Of a stretch of DNA of 64,000 bases, positions 5,645-35,308 are shown piece by piece. The stretch's first letter is position 1; each line of letters opens with the position of its first letter. The position numbers were made by a program, and so were the translations under genes. The DNA is from Nitrospirota bacterium (GTDB lineage: Bacteria > Nitrospirota > UBA9217), in NCBI GenBank assembly GCA_049793155.1, contig JBARBN010000106.1, positions 16,390 through 80,389 on the forward strand, written 5' to 3'. Below the pieces are notes generated by a model, which was given only the letters and a program-made list of their open reading frames with translations, was not told where the DNA came from and did no database searches.

Positions 5645-7081
5645 TCACGACATAAGTATGCTTCCTTGTGTTCCCTGACTGCGCACCATCTCCTTCAACT
5701 GAAGTATGCGCTCCCTGATCTTGACAAGCTTGCTGAATCCGAGCTCGCCGACATAGGGGGCCATCGCTATCATGATCTTACTTTGGGTCAATTTTTCCTT
5801 GGGGATCCTTTTCAGCACTTCGGTGACGATCTCCTTGATCCTCCTGTCATACAGCATGTCGCCAAGGCCGCGGGCATCCCCTGTTCGTGCCGCTGTCGCG
5901 GCCGCGATCCGTTCGTTCAAGTCCGCCTTGTACTCGGGATCGACCATGCCGGTATATTCATAATAGTCGAGCGCTTTTCGTATCTCCCCGGGGGGCGTAC
6001 TCATCTTCAGGATGTGACCTATGATCGCCCGAGTGTCCTTGTTGAATACAGCCTCGTAGGGGAGGATCCCTTTGTCCAGCTTCTGCCGCCGGTCCATGAC
6101 GATCCCAACCTCGTCAGCCATGAGTCCGAGGTCACTCTCTGTCCTGCCTTTGAGCTCCTCCGGATATTTGACGAGGGCGATCAGAGCGTTATGAAACTCT
6201 TTCATCGAACAGGGAGTTCCATCCTTTGAGGTCCCCCGGAACTTATCCAGCATCTTCCTGAACGCTGCCGGGTCATCATCGCTCCAGTTGACCAGAAAGG
6301 TGAATTCCAGCCGGTTCAGCTCCTCGATCGGCCGGAACCTCTCGCGCGCCGTCAGGAGAACCTCGATCCCGCTTCGCGCGTGCCTGTACCTCATGCCTGG
6401 AAAATCCTCTGCGTCGATCCAGTTATCGGGGTTGTCGACCAGACTGGGAATAAAACCGAGATCGACCAGCGCGTCGATGTTCTGCAGGCCCCGGATCATG
6501 ACCGTCGCTCCGCTCTTCGCCTTTTCCACGGCATCCAGGACGGTCTCGATCCTGCACTCACGGGATATCCTTGCCTCCGCAAGGTTCTTTTCAGAGATGA
6601 GCCTTCTTTCCTCCCGCTGATAGTCATGAGCTACGTTCGCATAGACCTCACGCAGCTTGAGGCGTTCGAACATCAGATTCGAGAGCGGCATTCCTGCAGC
6701 CTCGAGAAGATCGTTCAATGACGGCATATAAGGCGTTATGACGATCACGGACCCGTCGAGCGTTCCCCGTGTCTTCACCACGCTGAAAAGCGACTCGTCG
6801 CCAAACTTCAAGATGTCCCTCTTCCCTTTTGCAAGGATCTGATAGGCGACCGTCCCGTTCTTCTTGTCCACCTGCCCGTTCGTCAGCTCATACACTATCT
6901 GGGAGAACTCTACCGGGGTGCCTCGAATGGGTCCGCATATCCCGGCCCTATCCGTCAGGAGCTGGACAAACGGATTCTGTTTGAAGCCGCCAAGTAACTT
7001 TGTTCGTATTTGTTCGTTCCTGTCCTGGGTCACGCAAGTTCCTCTTCCCGCAGCGCCGGGGGATGGCGGATTAACGTTCAC
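5645..7081 (-). CDS. Hypothetical protein (about 470 aa), co-directional with and immediately downstream of the REC-PilZ gene
   Basis: Long ORF with protein-like composition. I recognise no family. The track start at 7081 is a GTG without an RBS. An alternative GTG (VTQDRNEQ) is preceded by 'ggaagagga'. Confidence 0.6.
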   Translation of the reverse strand: MNVNPPSPGAAGRGTCVTQDRNEQIRTKLLGGFKQNPFVQLLTDRAGICGPIRGTPVEFSQIVYELTNGQVDKKNGTVAYQILAKGKRDILKFGDESLFSVVKTRGTLDGSVIVITPYMPSLNDLLEAAGMPLSNLMFERLKLREVYANVAHDYQREERRLISEKNLAEARISRECRIETVLDAVEKAKSGATVMIRGLQNIDALVDLGFIPSLVDNPDNWIDAEDFPGMRYRHARSGIEVLLTARERFRPIEELNRLEFTFLVNWSDDDPAAFRKMLDKFRGTSKDGTPCSMKEFHNALIALVKYPEELKGRTESDLGLMADEVGIVMDRRQKLDKGILPYEAVFNKDTRAIIGHILKMSTPPGEIRKALDYYEYTGMVDPEYKADLNERIAAATAARTGDARGLGDMLYDRRIKEIVTEVLKRIPKEKLTQSKIMIAMAPYVGELGFSKLVKIRERILQLKEMVRSQGTQGSILMS

Positions 7082-7113: not shown

Positions 7114-7851
7114 CTAAATTTTTTTGCGTTCTTGAAGTTCCCTCATCACGCTCGCTCTGATGAATTCGCGGATTGAGGTCAGATCCGCCTCGTTCACCGT
7201 CGTAAATTTCATGCCCATGCCGGGGAATGCATGAAGCCCTGCTTTCTTCGAACTGAAGAGCACGACCGCAGTCGCCTCGATCTCCCTATCACCGAGGATA
7301 AGCACAAGCGAGACAAGTGCATTTGCCGGTTCCGGGGAGTCTGTCCTCACATAGAGACCGCCTTCGGAAAGGCTGGTCACCTCTTCGATCCTGACTTGGC
7401 TGCCTTCAGCCGGTCCCGCCCCTATCCGGGCCTTGAGCGAGGTATTGATGCGGATATTCTGACGAGGCGTTGCTTCAGAGGCAAATTGGATCGCACGGTA
7501 AAGCGCTTCGAGGTCAACAGGTTTTATGAAATAAGCGGCACAGCCGGCCTCTGTGCAGGCTTCTTTGACCGCTGTGCTTTCGTCTGCCGTATTGATAATT
7601 ACCGGGATGAATCGGAGGCTCGCGCTTTTTTTAATTTGCTTCAGAAGATCGAGACCGCTCATCTCCGGAAGGATGGCATCCGTGATCACGACGGTAGGGG
7701 CGGAACGGGCTATTTTTTCCAGCGCATCTTCGCCGCTGGAAACTGCCTCGACAGTATACCGAAGCTCCCTGAGCAGCGATGCAATGTAGAATATGGACGA
7801 GGGGCTTCGGTCCACGATCAGGATCGTACGTTTTTTCTGTTCCATATGCAC
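7114..7851 (-). CDS. Response-regulator receiver domain fused to a PilZ (c-di-GMP binding) domain
   Basis: The N-terminal REC is ILIVDRSPSS...VITDAILPEMSGLDLL. The C-terminal PilZ motifs are RQNIR (RxxxR) and SLSEGG (D/xSxGG). Confidence 0.75.
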   Translation of the reverse strand: MHMEQKKRTILIVDRSPSSIFYIASLLRELRYTVEAVSSGEDALEKIARSAPTVVITDAILPEMSGLDLLKQIKKSASLRFIPVIINTADESTAVKEACTEAGCAAYFIKPVDLEALYRAIQFASEATPRQNIRINTSLKARIGAGPAEGSQVRIEEVTSLSEGGLYVRTDSPEPANALVSLVLILGDREIEATAVVLFSSKKAGLHAFPGMGMKFTTVNEADLTSIREFIRASVMRELQERKKI

Positions 7852-18045: not shown

Positions 18046-19734
18046 TTAAGCGACAACTTCGTTCGCTTCAACACATTCAGCCTTTGTTTTTGACCAGCAC
18101 GGGCCGAGGATCGTATTCAGATCTTCTTCCGGCGTCTCTGCGATAGGCTTGATACCGAAATTCTTCACGAGCACGGCAAGTACATTCGGCGTGATGAAGG
18201 CAGGGAGCGAAGGGCCGAGCCTGATATCCTTGATCCCGAGCGAGAGCAGGGAGAGCAGTATGGCAACGGCCTTCTGCTCGTACCACGACAGGATGAAAGA
18301 CAGCGGCAGATCGTTCACGCTCACCTTAAAGGCCTTCGAAAGCGCAACGGCGATCTGGATGGCCGAGTAGGAGTCATTGCACTGACCGATGTCCAAAAGC
18401 CTCGGGATGCCGCCGATATCGCCCAATTCCTTGTCAAAGAACCGGAACTTACCGCATGCCAGCGTAAGCACCACGGTATCCTTGGGAGTTTTTTCCACGA
18501 AATCGGTGTAGTAATTCCTTCCCGGTTTCGCCCCGTCGCACCCTCCGACGAGGAAGAAGTGTCGGATCTTTCCCGCCTTCACCGCGTCGATCACCTTGTC
18601 CGCTACACCGAGCACGGCGTTTCGCGCAAACCCGGCGAGGACCTCCTTGCCGGGGGTGTCTTCCGTGAACCCGGGAAGCGCGCGCGCCCGGTCGATTGCC
18701 GGTGAAAAGTCATCCGCAGCGATATGCGTAACATCGGGCCAGCCAACAAGCCCGGCAGTGAAGATATTGTCCTTGTAGGAAGCGAGCGGTTTCTGTATGC
18801 AGTTCGTGGTCATGATGATCGCGCCGGGGAACTTTGCAAATTCCTTGTGCTGGTTTTGCCACGCCGTACCGTAGTGGCCATAGAAGTGCGGATATTTCTT
18901 GAGGCCCGGATACGCGTGGGCCGGCAGCATTTCGCCGTGTGTATAGACATTGATCCCTTTGCCCTCTGTCTGCGTCAGGATGGCGTCAAGATCCTTCAGG
19001 TCATGACCGGAGACGATGAGCGCCTTGCCCTTCCTTGCGCCGAGCGGAACCTTGACCGGGATCGGGTGGCCGTAGGTCCCCGTATTGCCCGCGTCGAGCA
19101 GCTCCATGGCCCTGATGTTCACTTCGCCGCATTTGAGCGCAAGACCGATCCACTCGTTCAAACCGAGGTCAGTGCCGGTCATGGCTGCCAGCGCCTCGCT
19201 CATAAAGGCATGGACGGCATCATCCGTCTTGCCTAGGATCTGGGCATGGTCGGCATACGCTGCAACGCCCTTGAGTCCGAACAGGACGATATCCTGAAGC
19301 GATTGGACGTCGGGGTTCACGACCGCGTCGGGTATGTGCTCACGCACCGCTTTTCCCTGCTTGACGAGTCCCTCAAGAGCGGATTCCGGCTTATAGGAAG
19401 CGCTCGCATGGGCAAAATCCGTTTTGCCGTCCGACTGGCGTATCTTTGAGCCAAGTTTCTTCCGAAGTTCCACGCTCTTCCGGATCAGCGTCTCGAACCG
19501 CTTCGGGTCAAAATCAACGTTCGTGAGCGTTGAGAAAAGGGCCTTGCTCATGAACAAGTTCACGTCCTGGTCGATAACACCGACCTTCCTGCCCGCAACC
19601 GCATGGAGCGCCAACCCCTTAAGTGAATAGATCAAAAGGTCCTGCAGCGCCGATACCTCCGGATCCTTTCCGCACACGCCGATCTTGGTGCAGCCCTTGC
19701 CGTTTGACGCCTGTTCGCATTGATAACAAAACAT
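18046..19734 (-). CDS. hcp: Hydroxylamine reductase / hybrid-cluster protein
   Basis: The Hcp N-terminal Cys cluster is MFCYQCEQASNGKGCTKIGVCGK. The RBS 'gggagg' precedes the ATG at 19734. Similarity runs the full length. Confidence 0.9.
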   Translation of the reverse strand: MFCYQCEQASNGKGCTKIGVCGKDPEVSALQDLLIYSLKGLALHAVAGRKVGVIDQDVNLFMSKALFSTLTNVDFDPKRFETLIRKSVELRKKLGSKIRQSDGKTDFAHASASYKPESALEGLVKQGKAVREHIPDAVVNPDVQSLQDIVLFGLKGVAAYADHAQILGKTDDAVHAFMSEALAAMTGTDLGLNEWIGLALKCGEVNIRAMELLDAGNTGTYGHPIPVKVPLGARKGKALIVSGHDLKDLDAILTQTEGKGINVYTHGEMLPAHAYPGLKKYPHFYGHYGTAWQNQHKEFAKFPGAIIMTTNCIQKPLASYKDNIFTAGLVGWPDVTHIAADDFSPAIDRARALPGFTEDTPGKEVLAGFARNAVLGVADKVIDAVKAGKIRHFFLVGGCDGAKPGRNYYTDFVEKTPKDTVVLTLACGKFRFFDKELGDIGGIPRLLDIGQCNDSYSAIQIAVALSKAFKVSVNDLPLSFILSWYEQKAVAILLSLLSLGIKDIRLGPSLPAFITPNVLAVLVKNFGIKPIAETPEEDLNTILGPCWSKTKAECVEANEVVA

Positions 19735-20081
19735 TCTGTAGTCCTCCCTCGATAAATTATATTTCAATCGACATTGAAAAGCTGGGGTGAACTATACACG
19801 ACCAGGGCGGCACTGCATATGACAGAGATCATACGAGATGAACAGGTTTTTCAAGGAGAAAGGCTTTGACTTCCTGATCATTCCGCCTGAGAAGCAACGA
19901 CTCTTATCGGGGAAAAAGATGCGGTCAAACATTGGAAAGCCGGTCACCGGTCCCCGATTCTTGCGTTTGTGATGAAAAGCACTGCGCAAAATTGTCATTT
20001 TATGTTATAGTTGTCTTGCTGCGATCTGTCTTGATCGCAGTCAGGAAGTCAACCTCGCACTCAAGACAAATAACGGGACCA

Positions 20082-20948
20082 ATGTCAGATAAGACCTCGC
20101 CGGACATTTCAGGATACAGGACCTTATACAGGCTGTCGATCTATGTTGTGATCCTTGCCTGGATCGTGCTCGGACTCTATTTCTTTGTGTTTACGAGGGC
20201 GGAATACCCGTCGGCAGCGAAGATAGTCCAATATTTCTTATCACCCGAGCAGCTTGGAATAAAGTTCAGGGCATTAATACTTCTCGCCCCGCTTATTCTT
20301 ACCATTGTCAGCTATCTCATCTATGACCGGGCCAATCTATTTCTGAAATCGATCATCGCGGAGCAGCAGTTGCGCGTCCTCCGGGACGATCTCATCGTTG
20401 CGTTCGCGAACGCCCTTGACGCAAAGAGCTCCTGGACACATGGTCACTCGCAAAGGGTCACTTCCTACGCCCTCATGATCGCCGAGAAGCTCCACGTTAA
20501 CGGTGAGGACCGGGAAACGCTCAGGATCGCAAGTTTACTCCATGACGTCGGAAAGATAGGAACGTATGATGTCATTCTTGACAAGCCGGGTCCGCTTACC
20601 GAGGAGGAATGGCGCCTCGTCAAGCTGCACCCCGGCAAGGCTGAGGAAATCCTCAAGCCGATAAAACAACTTCAGCATGTGCTGCCGATCATTAAATATC
20701 ATCACGAGAGGATTGACGGGAAAGGATATCCGGACGGTCTTACGGGAGCAGAAATACCGCTGTTGGCGAAAATACTCTGTCTTGCGGATTCATTTGACGC
20801 CATGATCGAAAATAGGCCGTATAAAACGGGGATGAGCAGGACCGAGGCCTATGGTGAGATCAAGGATAAAACGGACACGCAATTTGACTCGGCTGTTGCG
20901 ACGGCATTCTTGAGCGCAATTGATGCGCGGAGTAATGATCCGCGCTGA
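20082..20948 (+). CDS. Membrane-anchored HD-GYP domain phosphodiesterase
   Basis: An N-terminal TM segment is followed by HD (LLHDVGKIG) and HHERIDGKGYP (HD-GYP signature). Confidence 0.75.
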   Translation: MSDKTSPDISGYRTLYRLSIYVVILAWIVLGLYFFVFTRAEYPSAAKIVQYFLSPEQLGIKFRALILLAPLILTIVSYLIYDRANLFLKSIIAEQQLRVLRDDLIVAFANALDAKSSWTHGHSQRVTSYALMIAEKLHVNGEDRETLRIASLLHDVGKIGTYDVILDKPGPLTEEEWRLVKLHPGKAEEILKPIKQLQHVLPIIKYHHERIDGKGYPDGLTGAEIPLLAKILCLADSFDAMIENRPYKTGMSRTEAYGEIKDKTDTQFDSAVATAFLSAIDARSNDPR

Positions 20949-28036: not shown

Positions 28037-28801
28037 ATGAACATCACGCCGTCAACAGATAAAGAAACCGGAAATCGCGCCATTGTTATCGCGGGCGGGC
28101 AAACCAGGGATATGCTCTCCCTTTCGTTTCTGCTCCAGCGGTTCGCGTACAAGGTCTACAGCGCTCACACGTCCACCCAGGCCCTTGAGCTTATCTCATC
28201 GGCCCGTCCGGCCCTGGTCATTGCTGATCCGGTCCTCGCGGGTGCGAGCCAAGCGGACCTCCTTCACCTGCTGATGAAGCGGAACACTGCCGTCGCGTCC
28301 ATTCCCGTGCTCTACATGGTATTTCCCGGCGACGCCGCAATGGAGCAAAAATGTCTTCAGTACGGAGCGGCAGGCTGTATCTCAAAACCTGTCCAGGCCG
28401 AGGAATTGTTTCATGCAGTCCAGGCGGCCGTCGAGCCAAAACCGCGCGCCGATATCCGGATCGACACCCGTTTGCCGGTATCCCTGGACAATGTTCCTCT
28501 CGAGTGCTCCGACGATGAAGGCGGATGCGCGATCGACCTGTCCGCGCATGGGATGCATGTTCCGATGGCCGCGCCCTATCCCCCGAACAGGCGGCTCAAG
28601 GTACGGATCAGCATCAAGGACCGGACTATCTCGGCAGAGGGCCGGGTGATGTACAGCCATACCCCGGGGGCAGGATCAAACCGCAAACCCGGCATGGGTC
28701 TCAAGTTCAGTACCATCGAACCGCAGGACCAGGAGTTCATCAGAAAGTTCATACGAGATGAGGTCATGAGGGATGTAGCAGCAGCATTGAGCGGGGCTTA
28801 A
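28037..28801 (+). CDS. Receiver-like domain fused to a PilZ domain (paralog of 7114-7851)
   Basis: The PilZ motifs are RADIR (RxxxR) and DLSAHG (DxSxxG). The N-terminus is receiver-like. The RBS is 'ccaggaggc'. Confidence 0.7.
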   Translation: MNITPSTDKETGNRAIVIAGGQTRDMLSLSFLLQRFAYKVYSAHTSTQALELISSARPALVIADPVLAGASQADLLHLLMKRNTAVASIPVLYMVFPGDAAMEQKCLQYGAAGCISKPVQAEELFHAVQAAVEPKPRADIRIDTRLPVSLDNVPLECSDDEGGCAIDLSAHGMHVPMAAPYPPNRRLKVRISIKDRTISAEGRVMYSHTPGAGSNRKPGMGLKFSTIEPQDQEFIRKFIRDEVMRDVAAALSGA

Positions 28802-30775: not shown

Positions 30776-31510
30776 ATGGCAAATGGATTACAGAAAAAGG
30801 TCGCTCTCGTGACCGGGGCGAGCCGCGGCATAGGACGGGCGATCGCCCTTGCCCTCGCCGAAGCCGGGGCCGATGTAGCAGTGAACTATTTCTCTCATGA
30901 GCATGAGGCCCTCGACGTGGTAAAGGCAATTGAGGGCATGGGCCGCGGGTCCATCGCCGTACAGGCCGATGTCTCCCGGGCTTCCGAGGTCGCGCGCATC
31001 GTTAAAACCATACCTCATGAGCTGGGTGAAATTGATATCCTGGTGAACAATGCGGGAATTGCGCGGTCCCGTACGGTCGACACGATCACTGAACAGGATT
31101 GGGAAGACGTCCTGGCAACGAATCTCACTGCATCGTTTCTGCTGACCCAGGCAGTGCTCCCCGCCATGCGACGGAAGAAGTGGGGACGCATCATCAACCT
31201 TTCCTCTGCTGCCGCCCAGACAGGAGGTGTTGTCGGCCCCCACTATGCTGCCTCGAAAGCCGGCGTCATCGGGCTCACGCATTACTATGCGGCCCATCTC
31301 GCAAAAGAAGGCATAACCGTGAACGCCATAGCCCCCGGTCCCACCGACACCGAGATGGCGGCAGCGCTGCCCCAATTGTCCGCGAGCAGCATTCCCGTCG
31401 GCCGCTTCGGCACCCCCGAAGAGATCGCATCCGTGGCAGTGCTGCTGGCCAATAACGGCTTCATCACGGGTCAGACCATAAATGTGAACGGAGGCAGGTA
31501 CTTCGACTGA
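30776..31510 (+). CDS. fabG: 3-oxoacyl-[ACP] reductase (SDR)
   Basis: TGASRGIGRAIAL ... NNAG ... YAASKAG, which is the classical FabG pattern. The RBS is 'aggagg'. Confidence 0.8.
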   Translation: MANGLQKKVALVTGASRGIGRAIALALAEAGADVAVNYFSHEHEALDVVKAIEGMGRGSIAVQADVSRASEVARIVKTIPHELGEIDILVNNAGIARSRTVDTITEQDWEDVLATNLTASFLLTQAVLPAMRRKKWGRIINLSSAAAQTGGVVGPHYAASKAGVIGLTHYYAAHLAKEGITVNAIAPGPTDTEMAAALPQLSASSIPVGRFGTPEEIASVAVLLANNGFITGQTINVNGGRYFD

Positions 31511-31629: not shown

Positions 31630-33444
31630 ATGTTTTGTGCCATGACGAACCTGCTCACCTTCATATCCAGATCCCTTGCGGCAAAACTGATCATTGCCCT
31701 TGCCTTGCTCATCGTCATCGGAGGGGGGATATCCTCTTACGCGTTGATCCATGCCGGCAAAAATAATCTTGTAAATGAAGCCGTTAAAGACGCCGCCTCT
31801 TCCTCGGACCTCGTTAAAAAGAGCGTGCACTACAGCATGCTCACCCGCAACAGAGAGGCCATACAGCGCACCATAGACGACCTGAAGTCGGCCAGGGATA
31901 TCGGGAAAATAAAACTATTCGACAGCAAGGGAAGCATTTTTTATTCGTCGGATCACGAGGAGATCGGCCATCAGGTCAATAAGGCTGATCGCGCCTGTCA
32001 GGGCTGTCATGCTAATGGCGCAAAACCTGCCAATACCCTGGGTGAGGCCGGTCAATGGACGACCTATCGAAGCGAAGAAGGCAACAACATTCTGACGGTT
32101 GTCACGCCGATCTACAACGAACCTTCCTGTTTTACATCCGCCTGCCACGTCCATTCCCAGAACCAGCGGGTACTCGGCATCCTTGCGGCCGATTTTTCAC
32201 TGGCCTCCGTTGATGAAAACATCAAAAGGCAGACAATACAGACGACCCTGTATGCCCTTGCCCTGATGAGCATGATCTCCGTCGTCCTCTACCTCATCCT
32301 CCGGAAACTCGTATTGAAACCCGTCAGCAGCCTCTCGAACGCCATGGCAACCGTTGCGGAAGGAGACCTGGGCCGCCGGGTGACGCCGGTTTCCCGGGAT
32401 GAGATCGGCCTGCTCGTCCGCAGCTTCAATGACATGATAGAAGAGCTCAGGACAGCGAGGGAAAAGATGGAGGATTGGACCGCGAGCCTCGAACGGGAGG
32501 TGGCAATAAAGTCGAAGGAATTGAAGAGGTCCCAGGACAACCTGATAGAGGCGGAGAAACTTGCAGCCCTGGGAAGACTGACCGCCGATGTGGCTCACGA
32601 GATAAGGAACCCGCTCACCGTTATCGGTGGCTTTGCCCGCAGGCTCCACAAGAGCGCTACAGGAGAAAAAGAGAAGGAACGAGCCGACGTCATCGTCTCC
32701 GAGGTGAACCGGCTCGAGAAAATATTGCGGGATATCCTTACCTTCTCAGGGGAGGTCCGGTCTTGCCTTGAAAAACACCCGGTCGGGGAAATCGTGCGTG
32801 AGGTGGTCAACAGCCACGAACAGGTATTCATCGAGCAAAACATAAACATCGAGGTGGCGATGGGAAATAACCTCCCTCCCATCCTCATAGACAGATACCA
32901 GGTCAAGCAGGCCCTCACCAATCTCATCATGAACGCTTGCGATGCAATGCCCTCCGGCGGGATGTTGAGGATAACGGCGGGGATCGAATCCTTCAATGAT
33001 GTGCGGTATGTTGTCCTGCAGGTGTCAGATACGGGGCACGGGATCGATGAAAATAAATTTTCTCTGATATTCGAGCCCTTCTTTACGACAAAGGCGGCCG
33101 GCCGCGGCACCGGCCTGGGTCTTTCCATAGCGAGAAAGATCATGGAAGAACATGGAGGATTCATCAAGGCCGCGATCTCTGCGGAAAAAGGCGCAGCGTT
33201 CAGCCTCTATTTCCCCCAGCAGAGCGAAGAAGAATCACAAAAGATAAAATGCTGGGAATTCAAAAAATGCGGCAGGGACAAGGATGCAACAACGAAATGC
33301 CCCGCCTACTCTAATTTCGGCAGGATCTGCTGGGCAGTGGCGGGCACCTTCTGCGAAGGCAAAGTCCAGGGGACTTTTGCGCAGAAATATGAAGATTGCA
33401 GGAAATGCGACTATTATCAGATGATGAAAAAAGCGAGAGAGTAA
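31630..33444 (+). CDS. Sensor histidine kinase with a heme-type periplasmic domain (CQGCH, CFTSACH), HAMP, HisKA, HATPase_c and a C-terminal two-CW-like Cys/Trp-rich module
   Basis: The periplasmic region carries CxxCH at ADRACQGCHANG and a CX4CH-like SCFTSACH. HisKA is HEIRNPLT. HATPase is GTGLGLSIARKIM. The C-terminus is KCWEFKKCGRDKDATTKCPAYSNFGRICWAVAGTFCEGK...CRKCDYY. Confidence 0.8.
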   Translation: MFCAMTNLLTFISRSLAAKLIIALALLIVIGGGISSYALIHAGKNNLVNEAVKDAASSSDLVKKSVHYSMLTRNREAIQRTIDDLKSARDIGKIKLFDSKGSIFYSSDHEEIGHQVNKADRACQGCHANGAKPANTLGEAGQWTTYRSEEGNNILTVVTPIYNEPSCFTSACHVHSQNQRVLGILAADFSLASVDENIKRQTIQTTLYALALMSMISVVLYLILRKLVLKPVSSLSNAMATVAEGDLGRRVTPVSRDEIGLLVRSFNDMIEELRTAREKMEDWTASLEREVAIKSKELKRSQDNLIEAEKLAALGRLTADVAHEIRNPLTVIGGFARRLHKSATGEKEKERADVIVSEVNRLEKILRDILTFSGEVRSCLEKHPVGEIVREVVNSHEQVFIEQNINIEVAMGNNLPPILIDRYQVKQALTNLIMNACDAMPSGGMLRITAGIESFNDVRYVVLQVSDTGHGIDENKFSLIFEPFFTTKAAGRGTGLGLSIARKIMEEHGGFIKAAISAEKGAAFSLYFPQQSEEESQKIKCWEFKKCGRDKDATTKCPAYSNFGRICWAVAGTFCEGKVQGTFAQKYEDCRKCDYYQMMKKARE

Positions 33445-33599
33445 GACGATTGGCAACGGAGCCTCTCAGGGTAATGCACGGCGGCGGATTGCCCGATCAC
33501 TCTCCGGAACGCCCTCAAGCGATCAGGAACCGCTCCGTGTCAATCCTCATAATAACCCGTGGTGAAGAGACGAGCTCGATACCCTAAACATAATAAAAA

Positions 33600-33623
33600 G
33601 GCTTGGAGGATATCCTCCAAGCC
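33600..33623 (-). terminator. Rho-independent terminator for the Met-rich protein gene
   Basis: The hairpin is ggcttggagg-atat-cctccaagcc. It is followed on the minus strand by TTTTT (rc of aaaaa at 33595-33599). Confidence 0.6.
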
Positions 33624-33672
33624 TGGACCTGCCCTGTGAAGTGCATCCAACCGTTGCCCTGCCCAAGACGGG

Positions 33673-33951
33673 TTAATACTTCATTCCTTTATTTTCGGGC
33701 GCTTCCTTCTTCTCATCGCCCTTCATCATCTTATCGTCCGTCATCATCTTGTCGTCTTTCATCATCGTATCATCTTTTTTCATCGTATCATCGCTTTTCA
33801 TCGTCTCGTCTTTCATCATCCCCTTGTCGTCTTTCATCATCGAATCATCCTTCTTCATGGACTTGTCGTCCATGTCCGCGGCAAAGACGGGACCCGCAAG
33901 CAGGAATACGGCGATGGTCGCGAGCAGAAATGTTCCTATTTTCCTAGTCAT
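33673..33951 (-). CDS. Secreted Met/Asp/Lys-rich repeat protein ((M)MKDD pentapeptide repeats)
   Basis: The RBS 'aaggaggtgaaaacc' precedes the ATG at 33951. The signal peptide is MTRKIGTFLLATIAVFLLAGPVFA. The mature part is tandem repeats MKKDDSMMKDDKGMMKDETMKSDDTMKKDDTMMKDDKMMTDDKMMKGD, encoded by tandem DNA repeats. Confidence 0.65.
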   Translation of the reverse strand: MTRKIGTFLLATIAVFLLAGPVFAADMDDKSMKKDDSMMKDDKGMMKDETMKSDDTMKKDDTMMKDDKMMTDDKMMKGDEKKEAPENKGMKY

Positions 33952-34243
33952 GGTTTTCACCTCCTTTCGGGCCTTCAAGAGAATGGATCCAGAAGCCTTC
34001 GGAAGCGGATATCTTTCCCGCTTGCCTCGGTCTCTTTGTGCCACTGTATTGATAGTATACCGCGGTAAGATCACGCGGTGATCACGGCAATATTAATTTA
34101 CTAAACGGGGTGCACTGCTGCGCGGGGTGATACTATAGAATGATAATTGGCAGGTGTCAATTAAACACATCGACATGCGAAGGAGGCGTATCATGCAGAT
34201 GATTCAGCATGCCGCCGGAGTGCTTTACCATGAAAAGTCTGGC

Positions 34244-35308
34244 CTACGATGTCTCGAAGATCTTGTCAAAGTCCGGTGCGATCTCCCTGAACGCCTTGAG
34301 CACGTCGGGGTCGAAATGTCCCGGCATTGTCCTTTCGTCTCCCTCGATGATGATCTTGAATGCCTTTTGGCTGTCGTATGCTGTTTTGAAAGGCCGCCCG
34401 CTGCGCAGGGCGTCATACCGGTCCGCAAGCAGGACGATCCTCCCTGCAAGGGGAATTTCCTTTCCCCTGAGCCCGAGCGGATAGCCGCCGCCGTCCCACT
34501 GTTCGTGATGGGTCCATGCGATAGCAGCAGCCATCTGGATGACGGGATAGGTTGAATTGGACAGGATCCTTTCGCCGATGGTGGTGTGCGACCTCATGAT
34601 CCCCGTTTCCTCCCGCGTAAGCGGTCCCGTTTTCAGAAGTATACGGTCGGGGATCCCGATCATCCCGACGTCATGCGCCTGGCTGGCGAAGGCAATGTCC
34701 TCGACAAAATCCGGGGACAGGTCCATGGCCTCGGCGATCCTGCGCGAAAACAGTCCGATCCTCGAAATATGACCGCCGCTGTCCGTATCTCTCAATTCAG
34801 CGGCCGCGGTCAACTTCCGCACCATCTCGCTGCTGATGTCCTTGATCTCACGGAACGCCTCGTCGAGCTCAAGCGTCCTTCTCCGGACCTCCTCTTCCAG
34901 TCTCTGGTTGTGCGTGAGCATGAAATCCCGGGCAGCCTTGACCGCGAGAAGGTTCTTCACCCGCAGGGTCCACTTTGACTGGTCAATGGGCTTTGAAAGG
35001 AACTCGTCCGCGCCGACCTCCAGGCCCTTCAGCATCGATTCCCGGTCATGCAGTGCCGAGACCATGATTACGGGGATGGTCGCCGTGTCCAGGTTTGCCC
35101 TTATGTGACGGCACACCTCGTATCCGTCCATGAACGGCATCATGATGTCGAGGATGACGAGATCGGGCTTGATTTCCATGCACCTCTTCACCGCCTCTTC
35201 GCCGTTCGAGACCAGGAATGCTTCATATCCCAGCTCGGTCACGAGCATGCTGATCAGCTCGCGATTCACTTCCTCATCGTCTACGATAAGGATCTTTTCC
35301 TTGGCCAT
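34244..35308 (-). CDS. Response regulator with receiver plus HD-GYP phosphodiesterase domain (RpfG-like)
   Basis: The REC is ILIVDDEEVNRE...LDIMMP. The HD motif is AHDVGMIG. The HD-GYP signature is HHEQWDGGGYP. The RBS is 'aaggagg'. Confidence 0.85.
   Translation of the reverse strand: MAKEKILIVDDEEVNRELISMLVTELGYEAFLVSNGEEAVKRCMEIKPDLVILDIMMPFMDGYEVCRHIRANLDTATIPVIMVSALHDRESMLKGLEVGADEFLSKPIDQSKWTLRVKNLLAVKAARDFMLTHNQRLEEEVRRRTLELDEAFREIKDISSEMVRKLTAAAELRDTDSGGHISRIGLFSRRIAEAMDLSPDFVEDIAFASQAHDVGMIGIPDRILLKTGPLTREETGIMRSHTTIGERILSNSTYPVIQMAAAIAWTHHEQWDGGGYPLGLRGKEIPLAGRIVLLADRYDALRSGRPFKTAYDSQKAFKIIIEGDERTMPGHFDPDVLKAFREIAPDFDKIFETS

Follow-up and report, generated by a model that had tools for sequence, protein, structure and literature searches.

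Results

A small gene for an exported methionine-rich repeat protein

The stretch of contig JBARBN010000106.1 (assembly GCA_049793155.1) analysed here, 64 kb in length and referred to as the window, carries a small gene for a 92-residue methionine-rich repeat protein, located on the minus strand between the genes for a histidine kinase (HK) and a response regulator (RR; Table 1). The N-terminus of the protein, MTRKIGTFLLATIAVFLLAGPVFA|AD, possesses a basic n-region, a hydrophobic core and a VFA-A cleavage motif and, read by rule from this n/h/c layout, represents a Sec-type signal peptide, which is conserved among the closest relatives. The mature part of 68 residues is composed of the segments ADMDDKS, MKKDDS, MMKDDKG, MMKDET, MKSDDT, MKKDDT, MMKDDK, MMTDDK and MMKGDEKKEAPENKGMKY. 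It contains 15 methionines (22%), 17 aspartates (25%) and 17 lysines (25%), is 56% charged, and lacks cysteine, histidine and tryptophan. Disorder of the mature part is predicted by AlphaFold2, whose model has a pLDDT of 55, a pTM of 0.16 and a helix at residues 5–18 as its sole secondary structure. The original prediction of a secreted methionine-rich repeat protein was borne out by the open reading frame (ORF), the signal peptide and the methionine content, and the repeat sequence is exactly as it was quoted there.

The repeat unit is the hexapeptide M-[M/K]-K-D-D-x, encoded by 18 nt. Tandem Repeats Finder (TRF) identified a period of 18 with 8.1 copies, and the copies follow each other at spacings of 18, 18, 18, 18, 21 and 18 nt, with one unit of seven residues (21 nt). 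The autocorrelation of the array at lag 18 was 0.69 compared with 0.41 ± 0.04 in codon shuffles and was matched by none of the 2000 shuffles, whereas the value at lag 15 (0.47) was reached by 220 of them. The pentapeptide with a period of about 15 bp that had been assumed earlier is thus wrong.

The ORF is a real small gene. A strong ribosome-binding site (RBS), AAAGGAGGTGAAAACC, is found directly 5′ of the ATG at 33951. Comparison with the orthologue on contig L035 revealed nine synonymous and four non-synonymous changes (pN/pS 0.09), and this purifying selection supports translation of the frame; furthermore, insertions and deletions among the relatives remain in frame and drop whole repeat units. 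An upstream-extended ORF of 133 residues starting at GTG 34074, the choice of the gene callers for the related proteins P0001 and P0002, was rejected, since all three differences from P0002 within the extension are non-synonymous and both the RBS and the signal peptide belong to the ATG at 33951; the extension is accordingly considered non-coding. No second methionine-rich ORF was found in the window.

Downstream of the gene, the minus strand has the hairpin AGGCTTGGAGGATATCCTCCAAGCCT followed by TTTTT, with a folding energy of −22 kcal/mol (z = −3.86) that was equalled in none of 200 shuffles. The hairpin was also recovered as an inverted repeat and is kept in the related contigs L001, L035 and L072, so that the clean intrinsic terminator proposed for this gene could be confirmed. 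Upstream, a sigma-70-like site is to be taken as a promoter candidate only: the promoter region contains one such site against 1.2 in shuffles, i.e. not above chance, and while the −10 box and its flanks are kept in L001 and L035, the −35 hexamer is not. Use of this site would imply a leader of about 180 nt. A riboswitch in the leader was rejected on account of the fold (z = −0.36), the absence of an Rfam match and the absence of excess conservation, the leader being about 91% identical to those of L001 and L035 and not more conserved than the adjacent coding genes. The Rfam scan of the locus and of the whole window gave nothing above threshold, and no tRNAs were found. Sub-threshold matches (17–21 bits) to the archaeal C/D-box snoRNAs sR30 and sR5, at 33814–33873 and 33725–33768 on the minus strand, can almost certainly be put down to the repetitive, GATGA-rich nature of the array.

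Variation among close relatives and gene loss

The clade of closest relatives (the window clade) comprises the window protein, its counterparts on contigs L075 and L035, and the proteins P0001, P0002 (encoded on L001) and P0003. Over 5.4 kb, contig L075 and the window share 97.3% identity, and the 92-residue orthologue encoded on L075 differs by one substitution. The other proteins have 92 (L035), 95 (P0001, counted from its ATG), 90 (P0002) and 76 residues (P0003), the last one corresponding to P0002 without two MMKDDKG units. With 8–11 methionine units per protein and lengths of 76, 90, 92 and 95 residues, the suggested variation of the repeat number by slippage was supported by the comparison across strains. 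The methionine-rich coding sequence is only 81% identical to that of L001, compared with 97% for the adjacent RR gene.

In contig L072 (GCA_936413265.1), whose kinase is 96% identical to that of the window, the HK and RR genes are retained without the peptide gene. A clean deletion of 550 bp (L001 coordinates 6385–6934) with TCA microhomology at its junction has removed the promoter region, the leader and the coding sequence except for its last 11 nt, leaving the 3′ untranslated region and the hairpin in place. Since a near-identical strain has lost it, the methionine-rich gene is dispensable and strain-variable. The region between the kinase and regulator genes is an indel hot spot among strains of 95–97% identity (L072 6815–7326; window 33445–34243): a segment of about 110 nt, situated after the stop codon and before the hairpin, is present in L001, L035 and L072 and absent in the window, and about 120 nt of upstream sequence shared by L001 and L035 are replaced by other sequence in the window. 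Upstream of the kinase gene, a gene for a short-chain dehydrogenase/reductase (SDR) is found in the window and L075 and is missing in L072.

Relatedness to the MXKDX family

In Pfam and NCBIfam, the window protein obtained only chance-level matches (Trypan_PARP, PorY, WGxxGxxG). A search with the single sequence yielded only five homologues, and tblastn against plasmids gave none, the query being masked by the low-complexity filter. The profile A1, built from the window clade and two further relatives, retrieved 62 proteins, and 34 clusters were obtained when 1.84 billion representatives were searched exhaustively with HMMER. Eight of the matches to profile A1 (E from 1e-11 to 6e-4) have been named 'pentapeptide MXKDX repeat protein' by the Joint Genome Institute (JGI), although they score 25–37 bits with the NCBIfam model of that name, TIGR02953, and so lie under its curated cut-off of 41 bits, as does the window protein. 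A hidden Markov model (HMM) made of these eight proteins assigned 24 bits to the window protein by default, after 43 bits had been removed as bias by the composition correction, and 67.5 bits when the correction was off (--max --nonull2). Since 200 shuffles of the mature part averaged 37.4 bits with the same model and did not exceed 55.6 bits, it is the order of residues that fits the family and not the composition alone. The layout is likewise that of TIGR02953, i.e. a signal peptide followed by M-x-K-D-x-like repeats within about 80–130 residues; here the protein has 92 residues and eight units M[M/K]KDDx. It deviates from the family in its unit of six residues instead of five, [M][M/K]KDD[x], and in its distinct C-terminal tail, KGDEKKEAPENKGMKY. 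Judged from these profile comparisons and the layout, the window peptide is a divergent relative of the TIGR02953 family, to which the peptide MrpX and its homologues BcrX and C3568 (see Discussion) belong.

Scores on TIGR02953 itself ranged from 45.9 bits for the L004 ORF, which is above the cut-off, through 37.1 bits for P0023 and 35.2 bits for the peptide C3568 of uropathogenic Escherichia coli (UPEC), down to 18.8 (P0003) and 8.7 bits (P0001) within the window clade, in which P0002 gave no score at all. C3568 (C_RS16940 of E. coli CFT073; L034, 31948–32190) is listed as a 'hypothetical protein' in RefSeq; with this protein under the cut-off, TIGR02953 misses experimentally studied members, which suggests that curated models of this kind under-call the family.

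Gene contexts of more distant relatives

Relatives sharing 40–60% identity lie beside genes of methionine sulfoxide reductases (Msr), for which at least 10 different arrangements were seen, or form fusions with thioredoxin-like (CxxC) domains, as is the case for many of the relatives. Outside the window clade, an Msr gene was found beside the methionine-rich ORF in 32 of 36 metagenome loci, the contigs of the remaining four stopping 0.3–2.2 kb past the ORF. An unbiased count of Pfam families among 146 neighbouring ORFs of 30 representative loci gave SelR (MsrB), DsbD_TM, AhpC-TSA and HATPase_c with six ORFs each, Response_reg with five, and PMSR (MsrA) and Oxidored_molyb (MsrP) with four each; the 25 commonest families include none for copper.

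In clusters of the Rokubacteria/Methylomirabilota type, the order is MXKDX gene, thioredoxin-like gene, HK, OmpR-type RR, MsrP and MsrQ. The genes on L023, L024/L067 and L025 adjoin MsrPQ, those on L004, L029, L052 and L071 adjoin MsrA/MsrB genes, and on L031 the methionine-rich gene is divergent from genes for an extracytoplasmic function (ECF) sigma factor, NrsF, two MsrB and one MsrA. In a low-GC clade (L050–L070), a WCPxC thioredoxin-like protein has the repeats as its C-terminal tail and is encoded immediately upstream of MsrA-MsrB, and on L070 the fusion of repeat and thioredoxin-like domain continues into MsrA. In proteins from Acidobacteriota and Patescibacteria, the repeats precede thioredoxin- or peroxiredoxin-like domains; N-terminal repeats of the MMKDD(K/A) type occur in L007, L009, L012 and L020. 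It is the methionine positions that stay conserved across these very different lineages. The thioredoxin-like proteins and the fusions of thioredoxin with MsrA(B) from Acidobacteriota, Patescibacteria and the low-GC contigs contain the same MMKDD(K/A)-type repeat as the window peptide; however, in the fusions it serves as the tail or linker of a redox enzyme, whereas in the window it makes up a free-standing peptide.

A distinct subfamily of secreted methionine-rich MKKD proteins was seen in metagenome-assembled genomes of Caldimonas, Burkholderiales and Rhodoferax (L003, L005, L011, L013, L014, L018, L019, L026 and L028). Its members have two conserved cysteines and a histidine (…MQECKDHMAMAKKD…MCADMMKKD…), their flanks showed no Msr gene, and their context and function differ from those of the Msr-linked clades.

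In the Rokubacteria/Methylomirabilota clusters combining MXKDX, a two-component system and MsrPQ, two genes of 66 and 103 codons (AhpC-TSA/Redoxin) have been called directly after the methionine-rich gene. They represent one frame broken by a conserved in-frame TGA (...VVLVEFWTFG-TGA-INCRNVIPQL...), which gives a U-x-x-C redox motif, and a hairpin CCGCAAC-N11-GTTGCGG begins about 10 nt past the TGA. The frame was located at 649–1173 in L002, 6185–6710 in L006, ~7750–8270 in L024, 6288–6815 in L030, 2455–2982 in L032 and ~6180–6700 in L036. Its product is probably a selenocysteine-containing periplasmic thioredoxin-like protein.

Surroundings of the gene in the window

With a promoter-like site, an RBS and a terminator of its own, the methionine-rich gene forms a stand-alone transcription unit. 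As stated in the original prediction, it is convergent with a heme-motif kinase gene; this encodes a HAMP-HisKA-HATPase HK with CQGCH in its periplasmic part. The periplasmic region contains a CFTSACH (CX4CH) motif as well, and the protein ends with a cysteine-rich tail (KCWEFKKCGRDKD...CRKCDYYQ). The sensor domain matches no Pfam domain above the gathering score, and the kinase is widely conserved (3106 proteins with E ≤ 1e-30, many of them 60–96% identical and about 600 residues long). Upstream of the methionine-rich gene and on the same strand are genes for a REC-HD-GYP regulator, whose best NCBIfam likeness, below cut-off, is to the NosR-type c-di-GMP phosphodiesterase RR, for a ChaN-like (Cofac_haem_bdg) protein and for an NmrA-like protein.

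No oxidant-responsive regulator, whether a SigF/NrsF ECF pair or an OmpR-type two-component system, was found beside the gene, and the SigF-type ECF motif GTAAC-N14-19-CGAA is absent upstream of it, with a single match in the window. The order HK-peptide-RR is common to the window, L001, L035 and L075. Orthologues of the kinase at 89% and 81% identity have no methionine-rich gene beside them, which indicates that the linkage of kinase and peptide is recent and is no evidence of shared function. The synteny was rejected as functional evidence, given these other neighbours and the 96%-identical L072 without the gene.

Elsewhere, the window encodes HemN, ClpB, hydroxylamine reductase/Hcp, REC-PilZ, HD-GYP, methyl-accepting chemotaxis and YhdP/AsmA-like proteins. 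As a member of the 90% cluster of the kinase is listed by NCBI under 'Nitrospirota bacterium', the host is probably from a Nitrospirota lineage, and its gene set is of an anaerobic or microaerophilic kind. Genes for c-di-GMP signalling are frequent in the window, including those for two HD-GYP and two REC-PilZ proteins. Regulators of the NosR type, as resembled by the one beside the methionine-rich gene, are responsive to nitric oxide.

Table 1. Positions of the methionine-rich gene, its signals and selected neighbouring features in the window
Feature	Position	Strand	Details and basis
Coding sequence, 92-residue methionine-rich repeat protein	33673..33951	minus	ATG 33951, TAA 33673-33675; ORF and translation
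Signal peptide, residues 1-24, MTRKIGTFLLATIAVFLLAGPVFA	33880..33951	minus	predicted cut after VFA; read from sequence, conserved in clade
Tandem array, ~8 hexapeptide units M-[M/K]-K-D-D-x	33703..33870	minus	TRF, repeat spacings, autocorrelation
Shine-Dalgarno sequence AAGGAGGTG	33955..33963	minus	~7 nt before ATG; identical in L001 and L035
Intrinsic terminator, 11-bp stem, 4-nt loop	33599..33624	minus	48 nt past stop; TTTTT at 33594-33598
Candidate sigma-70 promoter TTGACA-17-TATAGT	34132..34160	minus	11/12 matches; motif search
Putative 5′ leader	33952..34131	minus	no recognisable RNA element; fold, Rfam
Overlapping ORF	33603..33947	plus	
HK gene (HAMP-HisKA-HATPase)	31630..33444	plus	CQGCH motif
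RR gene (REC-HD-GYP)	34244..35308	minus	
SDR gene	30776-31510		
HD-GYP gene	19932-20948	plus	
Hydroxylamine reductase (Hcp) gene	18046-19767		
REC-PilZ gene	7114-7851	minus	
REC-PilZ gene	28037-28801	plus	
SigF-type ECF motif match	42525		

Discussion

Small secreted peptides rich in methionine have been characterised in three Proteobacteria. MrpX (Dsui_0158) of Azospira suillum PS has a signal peptide and contains 20% methionine and 44% charged residues (Melnyk et al. 2015, PMC4436054). Its gene is co-transcribed with yedY1-yedZ1 (msrPQ) under control of SigF/NrsF, an ECF sigma system responsive to reactive chlorine species, and is induced 20–60-fold by chlorite or hypochlorite; the peptide becomes oxidised on exposure to hypochlorite and is reduced again within 50–60 min (PMC4436054). 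In Brucella melitensis, the operon bcrXQP, encoding the MrpX homologue BcrX, is induced by hypochlorous acid (HOCl) and contributes to HOCl resistance (PMC8315932). In UPEC strain CFT073, c3566-c3568, comprising msrQP-like genes and the gene of a methionine-rich peptide, is activated by peroxide via the two-component system OrhKR (PMC8550376).

The window peptide resembles MrpX, which was compared by its published description, in being small, equipped with a signal peptide, predicted to be periplasmic and composed almost wholly of methionine (22% versus 20%) and charged residues. In contrast to mrpX, its gene is monocistronic, lacks Msr, ECF and NrsF genes in the surrounding 64 kb, and belongs to a Nitrospirota-like host instead of a perchlorate-reducing betaproteobacterium. 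With BcrX and C3568, the latter being the characterised sequence comparator, it shares secretion and the abundance of methionine, and C3568 is like the window protein in falling below the TIGR02953 cut-off. C3568 is controlled by a two-component system and the window gene is also flanked by two-component genes; however, the RR next to it is an HD-GYP enzyme and not a DNA-binding OmpR-type regulator. Furthermore, the genes of BcrX and C3568 are located in operons with msrQP-like genes, which the window gene is not, and C3568 contains histidine and cysteine and is irregularly spaced, whereas both residues are missing from the window protein, whose hexapeptides form a regular array.

The interpretation favoured here, with moderate confidence, is that the window peptide is a periplasmic sacrificial methionine sink similar to MrpX. 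Once exported by Sec, the disordered peptide would offer 15 exposed methionines as a sink for oxidants such as HOCl, chlorite-derived species and peroxides; conversion of these residues to methionine sulfoxide would spare essential proteins of the envelope, as was shown for MrpX and inferred for BcrX and C3568. In the known systems, the peptide is re-reduced by MsrP and MsrQ, or by exported MsrA/B fed by thioredoxin-like proteins and CcdA; in the organism studied here, recycling, if any, would have to use Msr encoded elsewhere in the genome, and otherwise the peptide would be consumed. The 18-nt repeats, prone to gain and loss of units, may tune the number of methionines. What the sequences document directly is how the gene is built, that its product bears an export signal, is rich in methionine and is predicted to be disordered, that the frame is under purifying selection, that the repeat number varies and the gene can be lost, and that the relatives are associated with Msr and thioredoxin genes; the scavenging of oxidants by the window peptide, its recycling and its regulation are inferred.

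Several lines of evidence support this role. The architecture is that of MrpX, i.e. a signal peptide followed by a methionine-rich, highly charged region of low complexity, and the relatives are found beside Msr and thioredoxin genes with no enrichment of copper genes, by which an oxidant sink is favoured over copper binding. Both possibilities had been offered in the original prediction; the former gained from the link to the MXKDX family and from the Msr/thioredoxin neighbours of the relatives, while the latter was not supported, there being no histidine, cysteine or tryptophan in the mature peptide, no family match and no copper context.

Several observations weigh against a methionine sink. 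The window protein gave no match to TIGR02953 even at E ≤ 10, a failure attributable to the composition correction of HMMER. Its closest relatives reached 0–18.8 bits on TIGR02953 against the cut-off of 41, and for a repeat of such low complexity the likeness of profiles does not allow shared ancestry to be clearly told from convergence. Moreover, tblastn with queries from related loci detected no MsrP, MsrQ, MsrA, MsrB, NrsF or SigF-type ECF sigma factor in the 64-kb window, and no transcription factor adjoins the gene, the output domain of the adjacent RR being HD-GYP and not DNA-binding. Finally, the host looks anaerobic or microaerophilic from its HemN and hydroxylamine reductase/Hcp genes, and such an organism would not obviously encounter HOCl stress.

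Among the other explanations, a secreted polyampholyte without any redox role is unlikely, although the predicted disorder, the 56% of charged residues, the dispensability of the gene in a close relative and the faster evolution of the array than of its neighbour (81% versus 97% identity to L001) would all suit it. Such a peptide could be a hydrophilin-like protectant of the envelope, a buffer of divalent cations by virtue of its 21 acidic residues, or simply the product of a functionless filler gene that evolves fast. The low pN/pS of 0.09 and the methionine positions kept across very different lineages do not agree with this explanation, and the steady association of the relatives with Msr and thioredoxin points to methionine chemistry.

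Binding or buffering of Cu(I) or Ag(I) in the periplasm through methionine thioethers, in MM pairs and M-x4-MM motifs, as in proteins of the Ctr1 or PcoE/SilE type, has to be regarded as improbable. Copper sites made of methionine only are known from Ctr1-type motifs, and the mature part with its 22% methionine and regularly spaced methionine pairs would offer suitable ligands. Met-motif proteins of the PcoE/SilE, CopA/PcoA, PcoC/CopC and CusF types, however, are periplasmic Cu/Ag binders that use histidine, methionine and tryptophan together. The window peptide is like the PcoE/SilE type in being periplasmic and methionine-rich, and PcoE/SilE are disordered too, but it differs from all these proteins by having neither histidine nor tryptophan (nor, for that matter, cysteine), by matching no copper or silver family of Pfam or NCBIfam at E ≤ 10, and by the absence of a Cu/Ag gene context both in the window, where no cop, cus, pco or sil gene was found among the scanned genes, and in its relatives, whose 25 commonest neighbour families include Msr, thioredoxin and DsbD. 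Two relatives gave sub-threshold matches to CopL_fam (E = 1.2 and 0.32), which are at chance level, and none of seven papers in which MXKDX is mentioned connects these proteins with metals.

It is very doubtful that the peptide acts as an accessory or ligand of the flanking pair, sensed by the heme-motif domain of the kinase and feeding into c-di-GMP turnover via the REC-HD-GYP regulator. The gene does sit between the HK with its CQGCH motif and the RR-HD-GYP gene in the window, L001, L035 and L075, two-component genes are recurrent beside the relatives, and a two-component system controls c3568 in UPEC (PMC8550376). Nevertheless, synteny confined to contigs of at least 95% identity carries little information, L072 has kept the HK and RR genes after deletion of the peptide gene, the kinase orthologues at 89% and 81% identity have no such neighbour, and the methionine-rich gene is provided with a promoter-like site and a terminator of its own. 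Equally doubtful would be a redox-reporting ligand or decoy read by the kinase, coupling the periplasmic oxidant load to c-di-GMP signalling, or alternatively a non-recycled, consumable antioxidant in an anaerobe. The low-complexity repeat DNA with several overlapping ORFs on both strands might even suggest a chance ORF over a non-coding repeat or a real product on the plus strand, but this is next to impossible in view of the strong RBS and the signal peptide placed exactly at the ATG, the nine synonymous versus four non-synonymous changes relative to L035, the frame-keeping indels of whole units, the terminator on the same strand and the homologous secreted peptides in many phyla.

Sacrificial methionine peptides are a recently recognised form of envelope defence, studied so far in the three Proteobacteria represented by MrpX of Azospira, BcrX of Brucella and C3568 of UPEC. 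Whereas the kind of peptide is thus known, the present example is a variant in its hexapeptide register, its position below the family cut-off, its monocistronic gene unlinked to Msr, its occurrence in a Nitrospirota-like anaerobe, and its polymorphism in both presence and number of units. The case adds a regular hexapeptide version of the motif from a Nitrospirota-like, probably anaerobic or microaerophilic organism, and shows that the peptide gene can exist apart from the reductase genes. It also documents rapid change of the repeat number and outright loss of the gene between near-identical strains. The practical gain is modest, in that a testable annotation replaces 'hypothetical protein'. 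Beyond the single gene, the MMKDD-type repeat recurs as a free peptide, as the tail of thioredoxin-like proteins and as the linker between thioredoxin and MsrA in at least six phyla, almost always beside Msr, and this recurrence lends genomic support to a methionine-redox role of the repeat.

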